A DNA stretch of 64,000 nucleotides from Escherichia coli (GTDB lineage Bacteria; Pseudomonadota; Gammaproteobacteria; Enterobacterales; Enterobacteriaceae), in the NCBI RefSeq assembly GCF_003018255.1, contig NZ_CP027440.1; one strand, written 5' to 3'. This document shows, piece by piece, positions 30,695 through 42,060 of the stretch. The position numbers were made by a program, and so were the translations under genes. Below the pieces are notes generated by a model. That model was not told the origin of the DNA. It worked only from the letters and a program-made list of their open reading frames with translations, and made no database searches. Position 1 is the stretch's first letter; each line of letters starts with the position of its first letter.

Positions 30695-32107
30695 TCATTC
30701 CATTGCCCGATACACGGCTTCGCCAATTTGCTTTAGTGCTTCGCGATAGGTTTCGCTGAGCGGCAAAGCGCAGTTGATGCGCAGACAATTACGGTATTTG
30801 CCGGAAGCCGAGAAAATCGAGCCTGCTGCCACCTGGATTTTCATGCGGTAAAGCTGCCGCGCGACGCAGACCATATCGACCTGTTCAGGCAATTCTATCC
30901 ACAGTAAAAATCCGCCTTTCGGGCGCGTAATACAGATTTCGCAGGGAAAATATTCCCGTATCCAGCAGGTATAAAGCGCCAAATTGCGCTGATAGATCTG
31001 CCGCATCCGCCGGATATGGCGATGATAGTGACCTTCCAGCACAAACGTTGCCGCCGCCATTTGCGTGGACGGCACATTAAAGCTGCTGATGGCGTATTTC
31101 ATATGCATCAGTTTATCGTGATAACGCCCCGGTGCGACCCAACCCACGCGCAGGCCTGGTGCAATACTTTTACTGAACGAGCTGCACAGCAGCACTCGCC
31201 CGTCGATATCCCAGGAATGAATGGTCCGCGGGCGCGGATACTCCGTCGCCAGTTCGCCGTAGACATCATCTTCAAAAATCACAATATCATGACGCTGAGC
31301 GAGAGAGAGAACGGCCCGTTTGCGTGCGTCCGGCATAATAAATCCCAGCGGATTATTACAGTTTGGCACCAGAATGATGCCTTTAATCGGCCACTGTTCC
31401 AGCGCCAGTTCCAGCGCTTCAACGCTGATGCCTGTTTCTGGATCGGTTGGGATTTCAATCACTTTCACGCCCATACCGCGCAGCATCTGCATTGAACCGT
31501 AATAACAGGGGGATTCGACTGCGACAATATCGCCCGGTTTACATACCGCCATTAACGCCAGCGACATCGAGTTATGGCAGCCGCTGGTGATAATGATGTC
31601 ATCGGCGGTGACCACCGAGCCGCTGTCGAGCATCAGGCGGGCAATCTGCTCTCGCAACACTCGCTGACCGGCTAACAAGTCATAACCGAGAACGGTTTGC
31701 AGATTATGCTGCACCACCCGGCTTAGCTCCCGCCACAGCGGTTTCAGGCTGGGCGTTTCGACATCCGGCGTGCTTTTACTTAACGGAACAATGGAACTGT
31801 CGCTATGCGCCTCCAGCATATCCAGCACTTGATCCCACTGGGTAATTTCCACCGGGCGCTGCACCGGACGCGTCATCGGCGGTACTGGCGGCTGGGCTTT
31901 ACGTTGTGCGACAAAATAACCCGAACGCGGCTGCGGAGTGATGAGCTTCATCGTCTCCAGCGTCTGGTACGCCTGCTGCACGGTGCTAATACTGACGCCG
32001 TGCTCCTGACTTAAGCTGCGCACCGACGGCAATTTCTCCCCGTGACGATACAGCCCTTGCTCAATCCGCTCGGCAAGTAGAGTCGCCAGATGTTGATAAC
32101 GCGTCAT
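30695..32107 (-). CDS. yjiR: MocR-family PLP-dependent transcriptional regulator YjiR
   Basis: 470-aa ORF: N-terminal GntR-type helix-turn-helix (EKLPSVRSLSQEHGVSISTVQQAYQTLE) fused to an aminotransferase-fold domain. Confidence 0.9.
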   Translation of the reverse strand: MTRYQHLATLLAERIEQGLYRHGEKLPSVRSLSQEHGVSISTVQQAYQTLETMKLITPQPRSGYFVAQRKAQPPVPPMTRPVQRPVEITQWDQVLDMLEAHSDSSIVPLSKSTPDVETPSLKPLWRELSRVVQHNLQTVLGYDLLAGQRVLREQIARLMLDSGSVVTADDIIITSGCHNSMSLALMAVCKPGDIVAVESPCYYGSMQMLRGMGVKVIEIPTDPETGISVEALELALEQWPIKGIILVPNCNNPLGFIMPDARKRAVLSLAQRHDIVIFEDDVYGELATEYPRPRTIHSWDIDGRVLLCSSFSKSIAPGLRVGWVAPGRYHDKLMHMKYAISSFNVPSTQMAAATFVLEGHYHRHIRRMRQIYQRNLALYTCWIREYFPCEICITRPKGGFLLWIELPEQVDMVCVARQLYRMKIQVAAGSIFSASGKYRNCLRINCALPLSETYREALKQIGEAVYRAME

Positions 32108-32283
32108 GCTGTATTCCTTATTTGGACCATACAGAGAGAAAAACCGGTACAGATGAGGCTAAAAAACCGGATGCAGATGCTGTTTTAACCTGTCTGTATG
32201 TTAAATAAAACTAATATTTGCATCTGTATTGTGAACTGCCAGAAGACGGATGATGAAGCCTCTGAAAGATGAGGAGGCAGCAG

Positions 32284-32448
32284 ATGGAATTTCACGAAAA
32301 CAAAGCTAAAGCACCGTTTATTGGACTTGTGCAACTCTGGCAGGCAGTGAGGCGTTGGCGGCGGCAAATGCAGGCCCGGCGGGTGTTACAGCAGATGAGT
32401 GATGAGCGGTTGAGGGATATTGGGTTACGCAGGGAGGATGTGGAGTGA
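32284..32448 (+). CDS. yjiS: DUF1127 small protein YjiS
   Basis: 54-aa ORF MEFHENKAKAPFIGLVQLWQAVRRWRRQMQARRVLQQMSDERLRDIGLRREDVE, found by hand (below the ORF-track length cutoff); recognised as YjiS. Confidence 0.75.
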   Translation: MEFHENKAKAPFIGLVQLWQAVRRWRRQMQARRVLQQMSDERLRDIGLRREDVE

Positions 32449-32544
32449 TGGGGCAGTTCGTCGCGGATAAACAGGATTTCTCTATAACCTCCACAAGGAA
32501 GTGGTTATTATTGCGAAATCATCGCTTCACGGAAAGACGTCAGA

Positions 32545-34638
32545 ATGAAAGCTACAGAAGCCCGCCTACTCGATTTTTTAAAACGTTCGCAGCAGTTTGT
32601 TATTCCCATTTATCAACGGACTTATTCATGGACAGAACAACAATGTCGGCAACTTTGGGACGACATCATTCGTGCCGGAAAGCGTGACGATATATCAGCG
32701 CATTTTATCGGTTCGGTTGTTTATATAGAGCAGGGATTGTATCAGGTTTCTGGTATTTCTCCGTTGCTGGTCATTGATGGTCAACAGCGGCTGACGACCG
32801 CAATGTTGCTGATTGAGGCTTTATCACGCCATCTTGGCGAAGACGAAGTTTTTGATGGCTTTTCAGCAATGAAATTGCGTAATTATTATTTACTCAATCC
32901 TTATGAGTCCGGCGAGAAAGGATTTAAATTACTGCTGACCGAGACTGATAAAGACAGTTTGCTGGCGTTAATAAAACAAAGACCAATGCCAGAAAACTAT
33001 TCCCATCGAATAATGGAAAACTTTACTTTCTTTGATGAACAAATTGCCAAACTCGGTGATGACTTGATCCCCTTATGTCGTGGGTTAGCAAAGTTATTAA
33101 TTGTCGATGTGGCGCTTAATCGTGGTCAGGATAATCCGCAACTGATTTTTGAAAGTATGAACTCCACCGGTAAGGCGTTAAGTCAGGCCGATCTGGTGCG
33201 CAATTTTATTCTGATGGGCCTCGAACCAGAGCATCAAACCCGGTTGTATGAAGATCACTGGCGTCCAATGGAAGTCGCTTTTGGTCAGCAAGGTTACAGC
33301 GAATATTTTGACAGCTTTATGCGTCATTATCTGACGGTAAAAACGGGGGAGATCCCTCGGACAGATGAAGTCTATGAGGCATTTAAACTCCATGCCCGCA
33401 GCCAGAGTGTTGCTGAAAAAGGCGTAGATCGGCTGGTTGAAGATATTCACATCTACGCGGAGTATTACTGTGCAATGGCATTGGGAAAAGAAAGTGACAA
33501 ATCGCTTGCTACGGCTTTTCAGGATTTGCGCGAGTTAAAGGTCGATGTGGCATATCCTTTCTTACTGGCGCTTTATCATGACTATAAAAATGGCGATTTG
33601 CCTCACGAAGATTTCCTGAGCATAATTCGTTTAATTGAATCTTATGTTTTCCGCCGTGCAGTATGTGCGATTCCGACGAATTCTCTTAACAAGACGTTTG
33701 CCACTTTTTATAAAGTCATTAATAAAGAAAAATATCTGGAAAGTATTCAGGTACATTTTCTGAATCTGCCTTCATATCGTCGTTTCCCCAACGATGATGA
33801 ATTTAAACGGGAATTAAAAGTTCGCGATCTCTATAACTTCCGTAGTCGCAGCTACTGGTTACGACGACTGGAAAACGATAAACGCAGAGAGCGCGTGGAA
33901 GAGTTTACGATTGAGCATATTATGCCGCAGAACGAAAATCTGTCGGCTAAATGGCGCGAAGAGTTGGGAAGCGACTGGCAGCGTGTGCATAAAGAATTGT
34001 TACATACGTTGGGGAATCTCACTTTAACGCGCTATAACTCCCGCTACAGTGACAGACCTTTCGCGGAAAAACGCGATATTGAAGACGGCTTTAAGCATAG
34101 CCCGCTTTATTTGAATATCGGTCTTGGACAGTGCGAAAAATGGGATGAAGCCGCCATTCACGCCCGAGCCGATCGTCTGGCCGATCTTGCGGTTCAGGTT
34201 TGGCAAGCGCCTGCTCTTCCTGAAGAGGTTTTAGCTGTTTATCGGGCGCAGCCGGAGAACAAAACCAGTTACAGCCTGAGTGATTATCCTTTTCTTGCTG
34301 ATGGTTCGCATAGCCGGGTGTTATTTGATCATCTTCGCGATGAAGTTATGCGCCTGGACGCAGGGATCACGCAGGAAGTATTGAAGCTCTATATTGCGTT
34401 TAAAGCTGAAACGAATTTTGTTGATGTTGTGCCGCAAAAAAGCCGACTGCGATTGTCGCTTAATATGCAGTTTCATGAACTGGTCGATCCGAAAGGTATT
34501 GCCAAAGATGTGACAAATGTTGGGCGATGGGGCAATGGCGATGTGGAAATTGGTTTCAGTGACCTCGCACAACTTCCTTACATTATGGGATTAATTCGTC
34601 AGGCATTTGAAAAACAGATGGAGAACGCGTTGGTATAA
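32545..34638 (+). CDS. DUF262 (ParB-like NTPase) + DUF1524 (His-Me finger nuclease) fusion protein; GmrSD-like putative type IV modification-dependent restriction endonuclease
   Basis: 697-aa ORF. N-terminal DUF262 hallmarks (FVIPIYQRTYSW and the DGQQR motif in LLVIDGQQRLTTAMLL); C-terminal DUF1524 hallmark (FTIEHIMPQN ... LGNLTLTRYN). Sits in the slot that holds yjiT/yjiV/mcrBC in K-12. Confidence 0.8.
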   Translation: MKATEARLLDFLKRSQQFVIPIYQRTYSWTEQQCRQLWDDIIRAGKRDDISAHFIGSVVYIEQGLYQVSGISPLLVIDGQQRLTTAMLLIEALSRHLGEDEVFDGFSAMKLRNYYLLNPYESGEKGFKLLLTETDKDSLLALIKQRPMPENYSHRIMENFTFFDEQIAKLGDDLIPLCRGLAKLLIVDVALNRGQDNPQLIFESMNSTGKALSQADLVRNFILMGLEPEHQTRLYEDHWRPMEVAFGQQGYSEYFDSFMRHYLTVKTGEIPRTDEVYEAFKLHARSQSVAEKGVDRLVEDIHIYAEYYCAMALGKESDKSLATAFQDLRELKVDVAYPFLLALYHDYKNGDLPHEDFLSIIRLIESYVFRRAVCAIPTNSLNKTFATFYKVINKEKYLESIQVHFLNLPSYRRFPNDDEFKRELKVRDLYNFRSRSYWLRRLENDKRRERVEEFTIEHIMPQNENLSAKWREELGSDWQRVHKELLHTLGNLTLTRYNSRYSDRPFAEKRDIEDGFKHSPLYLNIGLGQCEKWDEAAIHARADRLADLAVQVWQAPALPEEVLAVYRAQPENKTSYSLSDYPFLADGSHSRVLFDHLRDEVMRLDAGITQEVLKLYIAFKAETNFVDVVPQKSRLRLSLNMQFHELVDPKGIAKDVTNVGRWGNGDVEIGFSDLAQLPYIMGLIRQAFEKQMENALV

Positions 34639-34684
34639 CGTGGCGAATAATACCCGGTAGCACTGGCGCTACCGGGTCAATGTA

Positions 34685-35026
34685 TCAGGCGACTTTCTGT
34701 TTACCCGCAATCACCCCAATAAATTCCCGCACCTGCTTTTGTTTACGCGCCGACAGCTTGCACACCTGGCGCAGCGACTGCATTAGCTCGCTCTCTTCGG
34801 GGGCGGGTGGTTGGGCGGTGAGGACAATACAGCCTTCCATCACTTTGACAGCTATCGCCGTGCCGGTGGCAAAACCGGCGGCTTCCAGCCACTGACCTTT
34901 CAGGGTGATGGCGGGAATACGGCTGTAATCCGGGTAGCGACTCGCATAACTCACGGTTAATTGACGGTTATTTGCCGGGGAGACTTCTGCTTCGAACGGT
35001 TGTGCAATAGAATGCGTGTCAGTCAT
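34685..35026 (-). CDS. symE: SymE, SOS-induced toxin-like protein (type I toxin-antitoxin, AbrB-fold endoribonuclease)
   Basis: Start trimmed to [52 protein letters not shown] (113 aa); lies immediately upstream of hsdS as in K-12. Confidence 0.9.
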
Positions 35027-35100
35027 AACTGCTATTCCTTGAAAATAGTGATTGTGATGAGCGGTGCGGGTGTGTTGGCGCACATCCGCACCGCGCTAAA
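35015..35100 (+). ncRNA. symR: Putative SymR antisense sRNA (antitoxin) overlapping the symE start and 5' UTR; boundaries approximate
   Basis: Known arrangement: SymR is transcribed antisense across the symE translation start. A TAGAAT -10-like hexamer at 35008-35013 and a strong stem-loop at 35061-35094 are present on the plus strand. Ends were not mapped. Confidence 0.3.
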
Positions 35101-35103
35101 TAC

Positions 35104-35119
35104 CTGGATATATCATCAG
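35104..35119. promoter_or_regulatory. Putative LexA box (CTG-N10-CAG) upstream of symE
   Basis: CTGGATATATCATCAG, an AT-rich dyad of the CTG-N10-CAG type, about 80 bp upstream of the symE start; symE is a known SOS gene. Confidence 0.45.
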
Positions 35120-35246
35120 TAAATACAGGGAAAGTCCAGCTAAAAATTAATGAAAATAAGATAGAAGTTAGCGTGAAATATAATTTTTGGTGATGTGAAT
35201 AAAGCGGCTATTGAGCCGCTTTATTGGTTTTATGAGGGCGAGAAAA

Positions 35247-36983
35247 TTAGTTTATCGCCGCGTTAGTCAGTGCGTCTGCAAGGTGCAGTTGGGTTTGTTG
35301 GGCGGTTTTTATACGAGTTTTAAGCTTATCGCATAGTTCATGAAGTAAACCTACTTGTGAAAATATTCTATATTGTTCAGTTAATGGTGGGCATGGGAAT
35401 GAATACAACATTACACTATTTGCTGATAGGTTGGGTTGTGCTGAGCCATTATCAAAGCGGTAAATCTGTGAGCGCCCAAATGGACTGGTTAAATAATTAT
35501 AAATATACCCTCCCATTTCTGTGATAAATGGTCTAATGATCATTAGTGATGAGGCAATAGCTCCTGTTTCATAGGGGGTTACAAAGGCAGTTTTACCAAA
35601 AGTTGCTCCTCGTAGGCAATAAACCAAATCACCTTTTTGAATTTTCCCACTTCTTAATTCATTAAATTTTCCTTCGGTTATAAAATTCATTTCTGTAACC
35701 GTAAGTGTACCATTTTTTTCTATATGTCCAGTATTGATCCAAGGAATACCTTGAGAAACATACTCATTTTTATTGGGATAATTACTTCCACGATCGCCAT
35801 TTATAAACTCTGATGTTAAACCAAATTTACACCACTCCCACCCTTCCGGCAGTTCAAACGGTTTTTCCTCATTGCTAATTGGCGGTAGTGGTTTTTGTTT
35901 TTTTATTTTCCCTTCTTTCACCAGTTGAGCTTTTTCCTGCGCAATTCGTTTGAGCAGTTCAGAGGCGGGTTCGTCATTCGGATCCTGCGGCACAAGTTTA
36001 CCCATTACGGCCAGTTGAAGAATGGTCTGTTTTAACGCATCCACGCTGGCTTCGGTGGTAAATAGGGTGTCGAAATGCTCGCTAATACGCGCCCAGTTTT
36101 CAGCCAGTTCCTCGGCGTTTTGGCTGTCTGTAAGCGTTCCCAACAGGGTTTCAACCAGTTGCTGATGTGCGTCCAGACTGGTCAGGGATTGCTGTTCCAG
36201 TTGGTCGCAGAGAACTGTAAGTTCTCTGATTTTTCTGACAATTTGTTGTTGTTCATTTATAGGCGGTAAAGCGATTATCTGTTGTTCCATTTTTTCTTTA
36301 GTCATATGGAGCATTGCAATACCGTTACCTTGCGATTTTATTTTATCTGTAATGGATAAAAGAAAATCATGTATAAAATATTTGTTTGAGTACTCTTCTG
36401 CAAATAAATTTAATTTCCATATATGGTAGTGATAAATTACTTTTTCTCCTGTCCAAATGAATGGCCCAAAAGATGCGGACCAAGCGTATATTAAATCACC
36501 ATTATTTATATATTTGTTTTCGTCTAATTGGAGGTCAGAGTAATACCACTCATTTGATGTGAATAGATTACCAACACGCAGCAAAGGAGTGCCTGTTTGA
36601 AGCATTTCATGTTTTTTATATGCTCGACCGTTAATAACCTCCATGAGATCTGCAACCCGCACCCACTCCCATCCCTCCGGCAATTCAAACGGCTTCTCTT
36701 CCTCGCTAATTCCTGGCAGTGGTTTTTGCTTTTTAATTTTACCTTGCTTCACCAGCTCTGCTTTTTCCGCAGCAATACGCTTCAGCAGCTCCGACGCCGG
36801 TTCATCATTCGGATCCTGCGGCACCAGTTTACCGCGCACCGCCAGTTCCAGAATCAGCTCACGCAATTTCTTAATGCCATACAAATCAATTTTACCGGAA
36901 CTGCCGCGCCCGGCGGTGGAACGGGTTTGCAACGCCGAGGTCCAGGTTTCCATATGATCAACGATCAGCTTTTCCACACTCAT
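35247..36983 (-). CDS. hsdS: Type I restriction-modification specificity subunit HsdS (non-EcoKI allele; family-IB-like domain order)
   Basis: 578-aa ORF with two variable target-recognition regions. A conserved segment occurs twice, at the N-terminus and in the centre (GKLVPQDPNDEPASELLKRIA.EKA.LVK.GKIKKQKPLP.IS.EEKPFELPEGWEW). Its ATG overlaps the hsdM stop (ATGA). Confidence 0.88.
   Translation of the reverse strand: MSVEKLIVDHMETWTSALQTRSTAGRGSSGKIDLYGIKKLRELILELAVRGKLVPQDPNDEPASELLKRIAAEKAELVKQGKIKKQKPLPGISEEEKPFELPEGWEWVRVADLMEVINGRAYKKHEMLQTGTPLLRVGNLFTSNEWYYSDLQLDENKYINNGDLIYAWSASFGPFIWTGEKVIYHYHIWKLNLFAEEYSNKYFIHDFLLSITDKIKSQGNGIAMLHMTKEKMEQQIIALPPINEQQQIVRKIRELTVLCDQLEQQSLTSLDAHQQLVETLLGTLTDSQNAEELAENWARISEHFDTLFTTEASVDALKQTILQLAVMGKLVPQDPNDEPASELLKRIAQEKAQLVKEGKIKKQKPLPPISNEEKPFELPEGWEWCKFGLTSEFINGDRGSNYPNKNEYVSQGIPWINTGHIEKNGTLTVTEMNFITEGKFNELRSGKIQKGDLVYCLRGATFGKTAFVTPYETGAIASSLMIIRPFITEMGGYIYNYLTSPFGRSQIYRFDNGSAQPNLSANSVMLYSFPCPPLTEQYRIFSQVGLLHELCDKLKTRIKTAQQTQLHLADALTNAAIN
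35832..36020. repeat. Internal direct repeat of hsdS, copy 2 (central conserved region)
   Basis: About 190 bp of high DNA identity to 36663-36852, including the shared core TCATTCGGATCCTGCGGCAC. Confidence 0.8.
36663..36852. repeat. Internal direct repeat of hsdS, copy 1 (N-terminal conserved region)
   Basis: Direct repeat partner of 35832-36020. Confidence 0.8.
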
Positions 36984-38452
36984 CAGTTAACCTCCTTGCC
37001 AGACAGCGCAGCGCCAAGAATATCGCGCAGTTGATTACGCAGCGTCTGGATCTCCGCCTGCTGTTTTGCATACTGCGCTAACAGTTCGTCCGGGTCATGG
37101 CTGACGGTTTCCGCCTGATGTGGGTTTTTAATATCCAGATTGAAGTTACGCGCAATCACGTCATCAATGCTGACTTTCCACGCTTGCTCATTCTCGATGC
37201 GGCTGGCAAAACCATCGGCCTCGTTACCCCACCAGTCAATCTCCGCCTGAAACTCTTCGAACTTCATCGGCTTGGTTTTACTGTAATTTTTCACGCCCGC
37301 CGGATACGGATGCTCATAGAACCAAATCTCTTTGGTTGGCTGACCTTTGGTAAAAAACAACAGGTTGGTTTTAATGCCGGTATAGGGGTTAAACACACCA
37401 TTCGGTAAACGCACGATGGTATGCAGATTGCACTCTTCGGTAAGCAGCTTTTTGATTTTGGTTTTAACGCCTTCGCCAAATAGCGTGCCATCCGGCAATA
37501 CCACCGCCGCGCGACCGTTTTTCGCCAGTACTTCCACAATCAGTTGCAGAAACAGATCCGCTGTTTCGCGGGTTTGCATCTCTGCCGGAAAGTTCTTCTC
37601 AATACCGTCTTCTTCCGTGCCACCAAACGGCGGGTTGGTAACAATGACATCCAGTTGCTCATCCCAGGAGGAAAGCGGTTTGTTCAGGGTGTTGTCGTGA
37701 CGAATTTGTACAGGCACTTCAATGCCGTGCAGCAGCATATTGGTGGTCGCCAGCAGGTGCGGAAGCTGTTTTTTCTCGACACCGTGGATCTGTTGTTGCA
37801 GCGTCTGATGATCGGCGACGCTCTTCACGTATTTGTTCTTTACATGATCGAACGCGCAGGCAAGAAAACCGCCCGTACCGCAGGCCGGGTCCATAATGGA
37901 TTCGCCGAGTTTCGGATCAACGCGATCCACCATAAAGCGAGTGACGGCGCGTGGCGTATAGAATTCGCCAGCATTGCCCGCAGATTGCAGATCTTTAAGG
38001 ATCTGTTCGTAAATATCACCAAACAGATGGCGTTCGCTGGCGCTGGTAAAGTCAATTTCGTTCAGCTTGTTGATCACCTGGCGCAGTAGCGTACCGTTTT
38101 TCATATAGTTATAGGCATCGCTGAACGCCTGCTTCACCACGTAGCCGCGTGGGTTTTTATCGATAGGCGCAGTGAGGTTTTTCAACGCCGGGAACAGATC
38201 ATCATTAACGAATTCCAGCAGGGAATCACCGGTAATGCCCTGAGCGTTTGCGGCCCAACTGCGCCATAAATAACGCTGTGGGATCGGATATTGATAGTTA
38301 TCCTGCTCCAGTTCCAGCGCCTCTTCCTGGGCATCGAAGATTTTCAAAAACAGCAGCCAGGAGAGCTGACCGAGACGCTGCGCATCGCCATCCACACCGG
38401 CATCTTTGCGCATAATATCTTGTAATGATTTGATTACTGAACTGATAGACAT
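36983..38452 (-). CDS. hsdM: Type I restriction-modification N6-adenine DNA methyltransferase HsdM (non-EcoKI allele)
   Basis: SAM-binding motif I (DPACGTGGFL) and catalytic motif IV (VVTNPPFGG). Start trimmed to MSISSVIKSL (489 aa). Confidence 0.88.
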   Translation of the reverse strand: MSISSVIKSLQDIMRKDAGVDGDAQRLGQLSWLLFLKIFDAQEEALELEQDNYQYPIPQRYLWRSWAANAQGITGDSLLEFVNDDLFPALKNLTAPIDKNPRGYVVKQAFSDAYNYMKNGTLLRQVINKLNEIDFTSASERHLFGDIYEQILKDLQSAGNAGEFYTPRAVTRFMVDRVDPKLGESIMDPACGTGGFLACAFDHVKNKYVKSVADHQTLQQQIHGVEKKQLPHLLATTNMLLHGIEVPVQIRHDNTLNKPLSSWDEQLDVIVTNPPFGGTEEDGIEKNFPAEMQTRETADLFLQLIVEVLAKNGRAAVVLPDGTLFGEGVKTKIKKLLTEECNLHTIVRLPNGVFNPYTGIKTNLLFFTKGQPTKEIWFYEHPYPAGVKNYSKTKPMKFEEFQAEIDWWGNEADGFASRIENEQAWKVSIDDVIARNFNLDIKNPHQAETVSHDPDELLAQYAKQQAEIQTLRNQLRDILGAALSGKEVN

Positions 38453-38518
38453 GTTGTATTCCATGAAAAACAAGGCCTTCTGCAACATGATGGTTGCAGA
38501 AGGCGCAAAAGAGAGTTG

Positions 38519-40951
38519 TTAAGCAGAGCGGGGCGGTAATTGGTAGATTTCGTTTTCCAGCTCGCTGAGCGCCTGATTATACCCGTTACGGTCGCCAAAT
38601 CCGGTTTTAATAATCTCCGGTAAGGTGCCCATGCTGTCGAATGGTTTAAGTTTCAGCACCTGAATACTTTCGATCTCCTGTACGCCCGCATCGGCGTATT
38701 TATCCAGCAGATTATCGAGCACGGCTTGCGCTGCTTCAGAGTATTTTGTGAAGTAGTTCCGCTTGCGCACGTTCTCGGCGCGCTCTTTGCGGGTTAACGG
38801 CGGCTGACCATACACTACGTGGCAAAGCATGTCGAACGGGTCGAGATCTTTACCGACTTCTTCTGCCAGTACTTCCCAGATGATCCCCTGTTGTTCCAGC
38901 TCGTGAATGATCGCTTCTTTGCGATCGGCGTCCTGCCACTTGCGGGTAAAGTCATCCAGCGAGGCATATTCTTTGAGCAGTGTTTTGCGGGTGTAATCTT
39001 TAAAAGATTCGGTAACCAGTTTACCGTCGGCATCGTAATACTGAACACGCTGCGCAATAACGCCCACCGCTACACCGTTGACGTGAAACTTGCGGATTTT
39101 CTTCTCGTCTTCTTCCGGAAGTGGGCCGACATCATCGGTATCGGTAACCTGGTATGGTGGCGCAGGCGGTTCATCAACGCCTGTTACCTGTTCGTCGTCA
39201 TGTTCGCTGATTTCTTCGAGTTTCTCTTCAAAATCAGATTCTGGATCGGCGATATCCTCTGATGTGGTATCCATGACTTTTTCGGGAATGCCATCGAAAC
39301 GCTCATCGGCAAACAGTTCGGTGGCTTTTTTAAAGTCGAGGATGGTAAACCAGAGTTTGCCGTAACGTTCGTCGATGCGTGTACCACGACCGATAATTTG
39401 CTTGAATTTGGTCATCGACTGGATGTTCTGGTCCAGTACTACCAGTTTGCAGGTTTTAGCATCCACACCAGTGGTCATCAGCTCTGAAGTGGTCGCGATA
39501 ACCGGGTACGCTTTTTTCGGGTTGATGAAGTTATCCAACTGAGCTTTGCCAATTTCATCATCGCCGGTGATTTTCATGACGTATTTGTCGTTCTTTTTCA
39601 CCTGCTCCGGGTTGAGATTCACCAGGGCGCGGCGCATACGTTCTGCATGATCGATGTCGTTACAGAAGACGATGGTTTTATCCATCGGGTTGGTGCGCTT
39701 GAGGTAGTCGGTAATGGTTCTGGCAACCAGTTCTGTCCGTTCGTCGATTACCATCGTGCGATCGAAATCTTTCTGGTTATAGATACGATCGTCGATCACT
39801 TCGCCGTTTAAGTCAGTTTGCCCTTTGGTTGGGCGCCAGCCTTGCAGATCAACATCAATATCAACACGGACAACTTTATAAGGGGCGAGGAAGCCGTCTT
39901 CGATCCCTTCTTTTAGCGAGTAGACGTAAACCGGATCGCCGAAGTAATCCGTGCTGGAGACTTCATGCGTCTCTTTTGGCGTGGCGGTTAAGCCAATTTG
40001 GGTGGCGGAACTGAAATAATCAAGGATCTCTCGCCAGGCGCTGTCTTCGGATGCGCTGCCGCGATGGCATTCGTCGATCACGATCAGATCGAAGAAATCT
40101 GGTGCGACTTGTTTAAACGCTTTTTGGTCTTCCTCCGGGCCAGTTATAGCCTGATAGAGCGCGAGGTGAATTTCATAAGCGGGATCAATGGTGCGTCCGC
40201 TGACTTTGGTCATTGCCGTACCAAATGGCTGGAAATCATTATTTTTGGTTTGGTCGACCAGAATGTTGCGATCGGCAAGGAACAAAATGCGTTTTTTATT
40301 TTTTGATTTCCACAGGCGCCAGATGATCTGGAATGCGGTATAGGTTTTCCCTGTTCCGGTCGCCATGACCAGCAGAACGCGGTTTTGCCCGTTGGAGACG
40401 GCTTCAATGGTTTTGTTGATTGCCTGAAGCTGGTAATAACGAGGCGATTTGCCGCTGCCATCGTCGTAATAGTCCTGAGTAATCACCGGAAGCTGAGCTT
40501 GTGTGTATCCTTTCCAGAGGCAGAATTTTTGCCAGAGTTCAGCGGGGGAGGGGAAGTCATCCAGCGTTATTTGCTTTTCAAGGCATTCACCTTCAGCTGC
40601 GGTGGCATCGCGGAAGATAAAGCCATCACCGTTGGTGGCAAAAACAAAAGGAACGTCCAGCAGGCGCGCATATTCAATGCCCTGTTGCATCCCTTTGCCA
40701 ATTTCATGTTTGTTGGCTTTTGCTTCAATCACGGCTAAGGGAATGCCTGGTTTGTGATACAGCACGATGTCAGCAGATTTTACCGTTCTGCGTGCCGCAA
40801 CTTTACCACGTACGATGACTTTACCGTTCCGGAGTTTGACCTCCTGTCTGATTTGCGTTGTGTTGTCCCAGCCTGCATTGAGAATGGCTGGCATAACGCA
40901 TTTGGTAATGATGTCTGCTTCCGTCAGGTTACTTAGGTTCAGTTCCGCCAT
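38519..40951 (-). CDS. hsdR: Type I restriction-modification endonuclease/translocase HsdR (810 aa, non-EcoKI; family-IB-like)
   Basis: N-terminal PD-(D/E)XK nuclease region ([19 protein letters not shown]), SF2 helicase Walker A (MATGTGKT) and motif II (DECHR). Much shorter than the roughly 1170-aa EcoKI HsdR. Confidence 0.88.
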
Positions 40952-41091
40952 GGGGTGTTCTCATCTAAATGCGATGCGTAAATTCTACACAGAAAAATAG
41001 ATGAATTCATCTGTTCAAAGAGTATTATCAGCGTTAAGTCACTGTTTTAAAGGTATTCTTGAGTTTCATCAATAGCTGGATAAGGATTCAT

Positions 41092-42060
41092 ATGGAGAAT
41101 GTTCGGTTCTTGCAAGGAGTGAAACAATATTTTTGTACTAAGGCATTAGATGTCATTCTGCTAATTTATCTACTCCTTGGTTTTATACTTCTCCCTTATA
41201 AATATCTGTGGAAAGATATTATTTTATCTCTGTACTTTGTTGGTATTCTTCTTTATGCATTAGTGGAAGAAAATCGCATTGCAGAATATATGGGGTATTT
41301 TGTTAAGTTCAGTAATAAAAACAGGTTGAATAGTTGTGCTGCCTGGTGTTCACTTATTGCATGGTTTATATTTTTGTTTTTTGTGCTTTCAATTAATATT
41401 TTTCCAGTCAGTGCCTCTGTATATATTTTTAGTGCTTTTTCATTATTTGTTTTTCTGGGGGGTATTTTTATTATATTAGAGTTAGAGTTTAAAGAAAATA
41501 AAAAATTAATGATTATTAGGTCTGTGACTATAGCAGTCATGCCAATTATATATTTATTCACAAGTAGTTATGCTTCCAGTTTATTTTTAAGTTTGAGTAA
41601 TCTAAACATTACGCTAACTCCATGGGTTGAGTATTTCTGGAAAGGGATGGTTTTTATGTTGCTTTTCTTCATGTTAATGCAACTTATTATCTATTTTGCT
41701 TTTTTAACTCTGGGGACTAAATTAAGTGTGTATAGGTTGTTTATACTTGCCGGAGCATTTGTAGTATCTACTTTTTTAGTGGCTTTTGCTTTAAAAAATG
41801 TAGAAGGTATTTCGTACTACGTTTTAAAAAGCACCATAGATTTTGAATGGCGTAATCAGATTAAATGTGGCCAGTTGAATATTTCACGTTCGAATGAAAA
41901 GTATTTTGGGTTTAATACTGATAAATATACTGTATTTTATTCCGGCAGAGATGGTAAATGGGGCTTTGATGAGTTGAAATGTAAGAAAGGTTCTGACAGG
42001 AGAGATGCATATTCTATTGAGAATGTCTCAGAATATAACGTGCCTGGATGGCTGAAATAA
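41092..42060 (+). CDS. Hypothetical multi-pass membrane protein with C-terminal soluble domain, strongly AT-rich (foreign composition); occupies the position of mrr in K-12
   Basis: ORF-track frame 41059-42060 (TTG start); trimmed to ATG at 41092, preceded by AAGGA. At least six hydrophobic helices (e.g. ILLIYLLLGFILLP, IAWFIFLFFVLSINIF, MVFMLLFFMLMQLIIYFAFLTL), then a charged C-terminal tail of about 80 aa. I recognise no catalytic motif. Confidence 0.6.
   Translation: MENVRFLQGVKQYFCTKALDVILLIYLLLGFILLPYKYLWKDIILSLYFVGILLYALVEENRIAEYMGYFVKFSNKNRLNSCAAWCSLIAWFIFLFFVLSINIFPVSASVYIFSAFSLFVFLGGIFIILELEFKENKKLMIIRSVTIAVMPIIYLFTSSYASSLFLSLSNLNITLTPWVEYFWKGMVFMLLFFMLMQLIIYFAFLTLGTKLSVYRLFILAGAFVVSTFLVAFALKNVEGISYYVLKSTIDFEWRNQIKCGQLNISRSNEKYFGFNTDKYTVFYSGRDGKWGFDELKCKKGSDRRDAYSIENVSEYNVPGWLK

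Follow-up and report, generated by a model that had tools for sequence, protein, structure and literature searches.

What occupies the ICR of this Escherichia coli strain at the place where K-12 carries mcrBC, and may its product be considered a restriction enzyme directed against modified DNA? In the window (the whole analysed stretch of 64,000 nucleotides from contig NZ_CP027440.1), this place is taken by an ORF of the GmrSD family, which runs in a single frame with no internal stop between two conserved anchors. The features of the locus are the following:

32284..32448, plus strand: yjiS (DUF1127), the conserved left anchor, on the same strand as the ORF and 96 bp upstream of it
32455..34684, no strand: variable cassette without a K-12 counterpart, from the yjiS stop to the symE stop (pairwise alignments with NC_000913.3)
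32545..34638, plus strand: GmrSD-family ORF of 697 aa, with an ATG start and its end including the TAA stop
34653..34676, no strand: perfect 9-bp inverted repeat CCCGGTAGC / GCTACCGGG with a 6-nt loop, read from the sequence
34685..35026, minus strand: symE, which is convergent with the GmrSD-family gene and forms the conserved anchor on the right
35021..35097: symR, downstream of the GmrSD-family gene (Rfam, 91.7 bits)
35247..40951, minus strand: adjacent type IB hsdS-hsdM-hsdR operon of the EcoAI/FtnUII family (hsdR, 1192 bits to NF046051)

Pairwise alignments demonstrate that homology to K-12 is lost about 6 bp past the yjiS stop codon and regained at the symE stop codon, and these breaks define the GmrSD-family gene as a cassette alternative to yjiT-yjiV-mcrCB. 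An earlier sequence-only reading had located the gene between yjiS and symE in place of mcrBC, which the alignments bear out, although the K-12 interval holds four genes (yjiT, the pseudogene yjiV, mcrC, and mcrB) and not mcrBC alone. The same reading supposed that the strain “exchanged” McrBC; the occupant is indeed different, but the direction implied by this word is not given by the data, as the cassette DNA is present in 1480 of the 5426 complete E. coli genomes (27%) and mcrBC in 597 (11%), the GmrSD cassette being more than twice as common. The window gene is one of several alternative yjiS-symE cassettes. In line with the textbook view, the ICR swaps defence cassettes, and the mcrBC of K-12 represents a minority state. 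It had also to be considered whether the ORF is simply the intact ortholog of a K-12 pseudogene; orthology with yjiT was ruled out, since the two are unrelated (BLASTP E 0.19).

McrBC shares with the window gene the chromosomal slot and the general role presumed for it (modification-dependent, NTP-using restriction). McrBC is an AAA+ GTPase with a PD-(D/E)xK nuclease, a protein pair unrelated to the GmrSD-family protein.

The occupant of the locus has been described before. He et al. (2015) noted GmrSD homologs at the ICR (APECO1_2080, c5421, UTI89_C5048, etc.), located beside the Rpn “transposase”, symE, hsdSMR, and yjiA, with McrBC being absent; a literature search by locus tags for the ICR homologs returned this publication only. 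According to the 2025 EcoSal Plus review, a GmrSD homolog replaces McrBC in the ICR, and a “GmrSD” class of ICR loci is distinguished. In the accessible part of Silas et al. (2025; doi 10.1038/s41467-025-63056-3), CLS_001 is the commonest enterobacterial GmrSD cluster, one representative per group (including CLS_001) was synthesised and assayed, and five additional active systems are reported; this part of the text gives neither the phenotype nor the substrate of CLS_001, and no published phenotype or nuclease assay for this cluster was found in the accessible literature. In the same accessible material, the O157:H7 copy located directly after yjiS carries the label CLS_001, with agreeing coordinates, and the cluster includes WP_001513533 and WP_042105862, the accession numbers of which lie between those of the genes flanking E. 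coli copies. Judging from these neighbouring numbers, and not from sequence, the window gene would be the same gene as WP_001513533/WP_042105862. It is an allele of the ICR GmrSD homolog of He et al. (2015) and CLS_001 at the same locus, which is already known and not new.

The domains and motifs of the product, all encoded on the plus strand, are arranged as follows:

32569..33210: GmrSD_N (DUF262), a ParB-Srx-like NTPase domain, aa 9-222 (PF03235, 9.4e-35)
32776..32790: DGQQR motif within GmrSD_N, aa 78-82
33211..33786: all-helical linker region, aa 223-414 (AF2 model)
33787..34185: GmrSD_C (DUF1524), a His-Me finger nuclease domain, aa 415-547 (PF07510, 1.6e-26)
33913..33930: EHIMPQ, a nuclease motif of the (D/E)HxxP form, aa 457-462
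34009..34038: stretch from LGNLTL (489-494) to N498, aa 489-498, bearing the His-Me finger Asn residues
34315..34614: DUF5655 C-terminal domain, aa 591-690 (PF18899, 3e-13)

The sequence-only reading had assigned the protein to the GmrSD/BrxU/SspE type from a DUF262 N-terminus, a DUF1524 C-terminus, and the motifs DGQQR, EHIMPQ, and LGNLTL. Significant matches to both profiles, the presence of all three motifs at the positions given above, and a collinear match with GmrSD_CT596 confirm this assignment; its two-domain description holds for these two domains and missed the third one, DUF5655. In addition, GmrSD_N bears YQR (23-25) and FESMNSTG (202-209). A family alignment of 61 sequences shows no variation at D78, Q80, Q81, R82, P461, and N491, and E457, H458, and N498 each reach a conservation of 90% or more. 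The AF2 model of the 697-aa protein (overall pLDDT 92.2) has helices at 228-426 and resembles the DndI, SspE, and BrxU folds. The DUF5655 domain was placed, by fold comparison only, among YdhG/YjbR/frataxin-like alpha-beta folds; no sequence relative of this C-terminal domain was found among solved structures, and an NCBIfam search with the entire protein matched no model. The domain may represent an added DNA- or ligand-binding module.

The GmrSD of CT596 (Eco94GmrSD) is the prototype Type IV enzyme for glucosyl-hmC/hmC DNA. The window protein is collinear with it (BLASTP, aa 1-553 on 1-625, 23.8% identity, E 1e-29, 111 bits): the two share the order DUF262, helical linker, DUF1524, their linkers align, and YQR, DGQQR, IFExxNxxG, (D/E)HxMPQ, LGNLTL, and KWDE are common to both, with EHIMPQ of the window protein aligned with DHLMPQ of GmrSD_CT596 (EH versus DH). 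However, the window protein has an extra C-terminal region of 140 aa with DUF5655, which is missing in GmrSD_CT596, and its gene is a chromosomal ICR cassette, whereas GmrSD_CT596 is prophage-borne. In Eco94GmrSD, DH mutants are dead and cleavage is stimulated by NTP.

Other relatives belong to other genomic contexts. HEC-06, a GmrSD-like protein embedded in Hma systems (full-length PADLOC profile match of 226 bits, aa 8-555), has the nuclease motif EHICP, an EHxxP variant like EHIMPQ, and its Q79A, R80A, E471A, and H472A substitutions abolish phage defence (Payne et al. 2024, preprint); it represents another subfamily, found in the Hma context and not in the ICR, and its phage range is not transferable to the window protein. 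BrxU (BREX-embedded; PDB 7P9K) resembles the window protein in its overall fold (Foldseek E 3e-5) and likewise carries DGQQR and (D/E)HxxP, while the sequence likeness is N-terminal only (E 1e-3), its RLFDS motif is replaced by QLWDD at the aligned position, and the window gene has no BREX context. SspE (a PT-sensing nickase; PDB 6JIV/7DRS) also combines DUF262 bearing DGQQR with DUF1524, but its likeness falls mainly on aa 3-101 of the window protein, and it requires PT made by sspABCD, whereas the window gene has no ssp genes nearby.

We consider it probable that the product of the ORF is an intact GmrSD-family nuclease made of a single chain, working on its own in the ICR as a Type IV-like restriction enzyme. 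By analogy with Eco94GmrSD, BrxU, HEC-06, and DndI, the N-terminal ParB-like domain would bind and hydrolyse NTP, governing DNA binding or release; the protein would probably act as a dimer, and E457/H458 together with N491/N498 are the putative residues that cut or nick DNA. As suggested by the genomic context, its target would most likely be DNA with a modification that the host lacks, for instance phage bases that are hydroxymethylated, glucosylated, or hypermodified in another way, and the protein may act as a complement to the type I system next to it, which phages with modified DNA evade. The annotation of about 64 kb surrounding the copy with 100% identity (NZ_CP027452.1) includes hsdM as the only modification gene and lists neither dnd nor ssp genes, and the GmrSD-family gene adjoins many different hsd alleles and families. 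Since a dedicated modification gene is absent and the hsd neighbours are diverse, the cutting of foreign-modified DNA is the likeliest rule for distinguishing self from non-self, and we infer modification-dependent cutting as the likeliest mechanism. The sequence-only reading had derived modification dependence from the architecture, which does not guarantee it, because DndI, the closest solved structure, cuts unmodified DNA; its caution that the specificity cannot be read from the sequence was right.

This behaviour of DndI suggests an alternative in which the window protein, like DndI or SspE, is guarded by a host mark and attacks unmodified foreign DNA, or is switched by such a mark, modified phage DNA not being the target. 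The mark could be phosphorothioate produced at another place in the genome or m6A of the neighbouring type I methylase, and the family does recurrently adjoin type I methylases. DndI (PDB 9JFL; ORF5 in the dnd cluster of Salmonella Cerro 87) is released from PT-marked self DNA, the host mark providing self-protection, and residues equivalent to DGQQR are needed for its ATPase activity. It is the best solved-structure match to the window protein (profile search against 9jfl, 3.4e-39 over the full length; Foldseek E 8.7e-17, TM 0.50/0.56), both having DGQQR and the His-Me finger; the top PADLOC model is “Orf5” (PDLC02693, 740 bits, full length), as dndI was originally called, and Y25, the PT-sensing Tyr in the YQR motif of DndI, corresponds to Y23. 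However, the same Tyr is conserved in GmrSD_CT596, and we rejected it as a DndI discriminator. In pairwise sequence comparison, GmrSD_CT596 is closer (111 bits) than DndI (52 bits), which has 596 aa, compared with 697 aa in the window protein, and is without DUF5655. Moreover, the dndI gene is co-transcribed with dndFGH beside dndBCDE, whereas dnd and ssp genes are absent within about 30 kb on each side of the gene in the identical strain, and PT systems are absent from the 9,040 ICR loci surveyed in the 2025 EcoSal Plus review. The diversity of the adjoining hsd alleles and families also means that no one methylation pattern could serve as the cognate mark. Taken with these data, guarding by a host mark is unlikely.

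It is quite improbable that the gene is silent or decaying, with no restriction phenotype in this strain, and that it owes its intactness to recent descent alone or has poor expression. Inactivation has occurred independently in several lineages, including O157:H7 (the copy of which bears a genuine frameshift and is split into a pair of 293 aa and 387 aa), HB-Coli0, and 23CRST042 (an IS1 insertion); partial deletions are present in other lineages too, and among 34 full-length copies taken by even sampling, 12 lack 1 bp. A promoter and terminator scan of 32050-35300 gave a site count not above that of shuffled sequence, with no promoter above the chance level upstream of the gene, and the lack of a published CLS_001 phenotype in the accessible literature is consistent with silence as well. 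Against this, dN/dS of the ORF is 0.05-0.09 (about 0.06) and low in every domain when compared with three E. coli/E. albertii alleles; purifying selection acts on it, and it is not a chance ORF. Every catalytic motif is intact, and the exact 697-aa protein was found on 546 public contigs, its 90% cluster including 3852 members. The allele DNA is 100% identical in NZ_CP027452.1, the matches listed include six genomes at this identity, and most copies have 96-98% DNA identity to it. A scan of genome contigs revealed homologs at 60-77% identity spread across phyla, the family having been widely transferred among them, and this also speaks against a silent gene.

Two further alternatives concern the type I R-M neighbourhood. 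Homologs of hsdS, hsdM, and hsdR are neighbours in 30-33 of 80 homolog loci from many phyla, and in other phyla the order M>S>G>R, or a similar one, is frequent on the same strand within hsd operons; over half of these loci have no hsd genes in the available sequence around them. In the window, symE/symR stand between the GmrSD-family gene and the hsd operon, the gene and the operon being convergent.

One can suppose that the DUF5655-bearing, type I R-M-associated subfamily is not a classical hmC/glc-hmC enzyme and that its YjbR/YdhG-like domain provides a different trigger, either another class of hypermodified DNA or a coupling to the type I state via the host methylation mark or anti-restriction sensing. 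We regard this as quite improbable; if true, the commonest “GmrSD” cluster of enterobacteria, for which the accessible literature states no substrate and in which the third domain is uncharacterised, would differ in mechanism from GmrSD, BrxU, SspE, and DndI.

Least plausible, and in our view very doubtful, is a back-up effector that is silenced by or cooperates with the Hsd proteins and is unleashed once a phage anti-restriction protein disables them, as with PrrC and EcoprrI: the homologs inside hsd operons and the similar type I R-M context of the “R-linked ORF” genes RloF and PrrC favour it, but the separation by symE/symR in E. coli, the many loci with no hsd genes, and the ability of the relatives GmrSD, BrxU, and HEC-06 to act alone when cloned do not.

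Two minor observations concern the ends and the annotation of the gene. The inverted repeat at 34653..34676 sits between the convergent stops of the GmrSD-family gene and symE, and it was missed by the terminator scan because it has no T run. Neither the unstated substrate of the cluster nor the mis-splitting of the gene in RefSeq makes the window copy a discovery. RefSeq annotates the intact ORF as a pseudogene plus a CDS of 387 aa, and owing to this splitting, protein-based surveys of defence systems in RefSeq genomes will undercount the GmrSD-family gene.

The 697-aa product encoded between yjiS and symE belongs to the GmrSD family; its domains, motifs and neighbours in the window are as follows.

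32545..34638, + strand: GmrSD-family gene, an ORF of 697 aa that starts with ATG and has no interruption
aa 9-222: GmrSD_N (PF03235, formerly DUF262), Pfam 9.4e-35
aa 78-82: DGQQR motif
aa 415-547: GmrSD_C (PF07510, formerly DUF1524), Pfam 1.6e-26
aa 457-462: EHIMPQ motif
aa 489-494: LGNLTL motif
aa 591-690: DUF5655 (PF18899), Pfam 3.4e-13
96 bp upstream of the gene, same strand: yjiS
directly downstream of the gene, convergent: symE/symR
beyond symE/symR: type IB hsdS-hsdM-hsdR operon (EcoAI/FtnUII family)

The DUF262 plus DUF1524 architecture and the motifs quoted for it in the sequence-only reading are thus borne out, while the third domain, DUF5655, had been missed. HMMER, run against 1.84 billion representatives, yielded 2793 clusters below 1e-30. 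In an alignment of the protein with 60 homologs drawn from this search (33-65% identity), residues Q24, R25, W29, D78, Q80, Q81, R82, N206, P461 and N491 are invariant, with E457, H458 and N498 conserved in at least 90% of these 61 sequences. By the Nei-Gojobori method, dN/dS comes to 0.060 in the comparison with a B2-phylogroup allele, 0.086 with the E. albertii allele and 0.055 with an E. coli allele of 74% identity, and it is low in every domain separately. The ORF is a genuine gene, held under purifying selection.

In pairwise alignment, identity with K-12 stops about six bases past the yjiS stop codon and restarts exactly at the symE stop codon, which makes the 2.2-kb cassette found here the counterpart of a 7.6-kb K-12 cassette. 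The latter holds yjiT, the yjiV pseudogene, mcrC and mcrB, so the gene does lie in the K-12 slot of mcrBC, as had been claimed. Since the K-12 YjiT is an unrelated protein, the objection that the gene is the intact ortholog of a K-12 pseudogene has no hold here. A perfect 9-bp inverted repeat (34653-34676; CCCGGTAGC, 6-nt loop, GCTACCGGG) sits within the 46-bp gap separating the convergent stop codons of the gene and symE; it was not called by the terminator scan because it has no T run. Between hsdR and yjiA, at the mrr position of K-12, a stretch of about 30% G+C carries a 333-aa ORF (41059-42060, + strand) without a match in Pfam, NCBIfam, PADLOC or PDB sequences; in the NZ_CP027452.1 genome, whose copy of the GmrSD-family gene is 100% identical in DNA, it is labelled "hypothetical protein" and is followed by a second small hypothetical gene.

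Of 5426 complete E. coli genomes, 1480 carry cassette DNA, which is nearly full length in 1360 of them and mostly at 95-99% identity (100% in six genomes among the matches listed); K-12-type mcrCB occurs in only 597 of the 5426, and many of these 597 are laboratory K-12 derivatives. The identical protein is encoded on 546 contigs in public data, where it is named "DUF262 domain-containing protein". With one genome scanned for each species, 80 loci of 40-77% identity emerged, in Proteobacteria, Actinobacteria, Firmicutes, Bacteroidetes, Planctomycetes, Cyanobacteria and methanogenic archaea. When the neighbours were clustered, 33 of these loci proved to have an hsdS-like gene, 30 an hsdM-like one and 18+14 an hsdR-like one, identities that NCBIfam confirmed; the homolog (G) is often embedded in the hsd operon in the same orientation, in the order M>S>G>R or M>G>S>R. 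Homologs that share the three-domain build keep 60-77% identity even between distant phyla and in archaea (Methanococcoides, Methanobrevibacter); they often lie within type I R-M operons and sometimes adjoin tyrosine recombinases, a pattern that fits frequent horizontal transfer of the cassette.

Several of these facts have precedents. [quoted passage not shown] 2015 had already reported GmrSD homologs (APECO1_2080, c5421, UTI89_C5048 and others), adjoining the Rpn "transposase", symE, hsdSMR and yjiA, and noted the absence of McrBC there. A 2025 EcoSal review has a GmrSD homolog taking the place of McrBC in the region and lists GmrSD for 12% and McrBC for 6% of 9,040 ICR loci. In Silas et al. 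2025, CLS_001, the largest of their enterobacterial GmrSD clusters, includes the O157:H7 gene directly after yjiS, with coordinates matching the two ORFs that we see in O157:H7. WP_001513533 and WP_042105862 belong to it as well, and the accession numbers of these two lie between those given to the genes on either side at two of our loci (L006 and L001). The authors synthesised one representative for each of 15 groups and identified five further active systems. GmrSD homologs had likewise been linked to type I R-M loci before (RloF; Machnicka et al. 2015; Payne et al. 2024). The finding is therefore correct and already known: the original observation is confirmed and its interpretation supported, with corrections.

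BLASTP against the prototype GmrSD, that of E. coli CT596 (sequence supplied with Silas et al. 2025), gave one alignment, collinear over aa 1-553/1-625 (23.8% identity, E 1e-29), with YQR, DGQQR, IFExxNxxG, (D/E)HxMPQ, LGNLTL and KWDE shared. The full-length PADLOC matches are "Orf5" (740 bits), which is ORF5 of the Salmonella Cerro 87 dpt/dnd cluster, later renamed DndI, and HEC-06 (226 bits), which has the same EHxxP nuclease motif. DndI, with the same two core domains, is also matched over its full length by sequence profile (3e-39). A confident AlphaFold2 model built on the 61-sequence alignment (pLDDT 92.2, pTM 0.79) has DndI 9JFL (E 9e-17), SspE 7DRS and BrxU 7P9K as its best solved-structure matches. 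In sequence, the BLASTP match to BrxU is confined to the N-terminus, and the PADLOC matches to SspE are N-terminal.

By analogy with DndI and HEC-06, which lose function upon substitution of R87A in the former and of Q79A or R80A in the latter, the ParB-like domain would hydrolyse NTP and regulate DNA binding. The His-Me finger presumably cuts DNA, as the D507A and H508A mutants of Eco94GmrSD are inactive in vitro and the E471A and H472A mutants of HEC-06 lose phage defence. We favour a modification-dependent (Type IV) action because hsdM is the only modification gene within about 30 kb either side of the gene in NZ_CP027452.1, the gene accompanies many different hsd alleles, cloned relatives act alone, and the sequence is closer to GmrSD_CT596 than to DndI. 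The last point also weighs against the main caveat, namely that the enzyme may follow DndI, which cleaves DNA lacking modification and dissociates from self DNA that bears phosphorothioate, so that a host mark would protect self. The phosphorothioate-sensing Tyr of DndI was rejected as a discriminator because its YQR motif occurs in GmrSD_CT596 too. PrrC-like coupling to the type I system and a silent or decaying copy in the window are lesser rivals to Type IV action.

RefSeq/PGAP splits the intact ORF into a "DUF262 ... missing C-terminus" pseudogene and a 387-aa CDS named "GmrSD restriction endonuclease domain-containing protein" (L001 9001-11094, which equals 32545-34638 of the window, and L006 1501-3594), even where the DNA is 100% identical; two annotated features lie under every full-length match listed in complete E. 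coli genomes. The probable cause is that annotation takes as evidence the pair of proteins encoded by the O157:H7 copy, which is frameshifted. Protein-based RefSeq surveys would undercount the gene because of this split. The O157:H7 copy (L005 1501-3593) lacks 1 bp and is thereby split into ORFs of 293 and 387 aa, the HB-Coli0 copy (L090 301-2393) has a different frameshift (173 aa and 387 aa), one strain (hit H51) carries an IS1 insertion, others have partial deletions, and 12 of 34 evenly sampled full-length matches measure 2093 bp, not 2094. Putative inactivation has arisen independently in several lineages.

The gene is a mosaic in its synonymous divergence from the E. albertii (L011) and L006 alleles; relative to E. 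albertii, dS amounts to 0.16 (aa 1-230), 0.20 (231-414), 0.89 (415-555) and 0.08 (556-697), which suggests intragenic recombination with a swapped nuclease-domain segment. A second form of the gene (L003 6001-8100, 74% DNA identity), carried by about 73 complete E. coli genomes, occupies another ICR position, where it is divergent from a type I hsdM-S-R operon and has Fic and BrnA genes after it, and PGAP annotates it as one intact gene.
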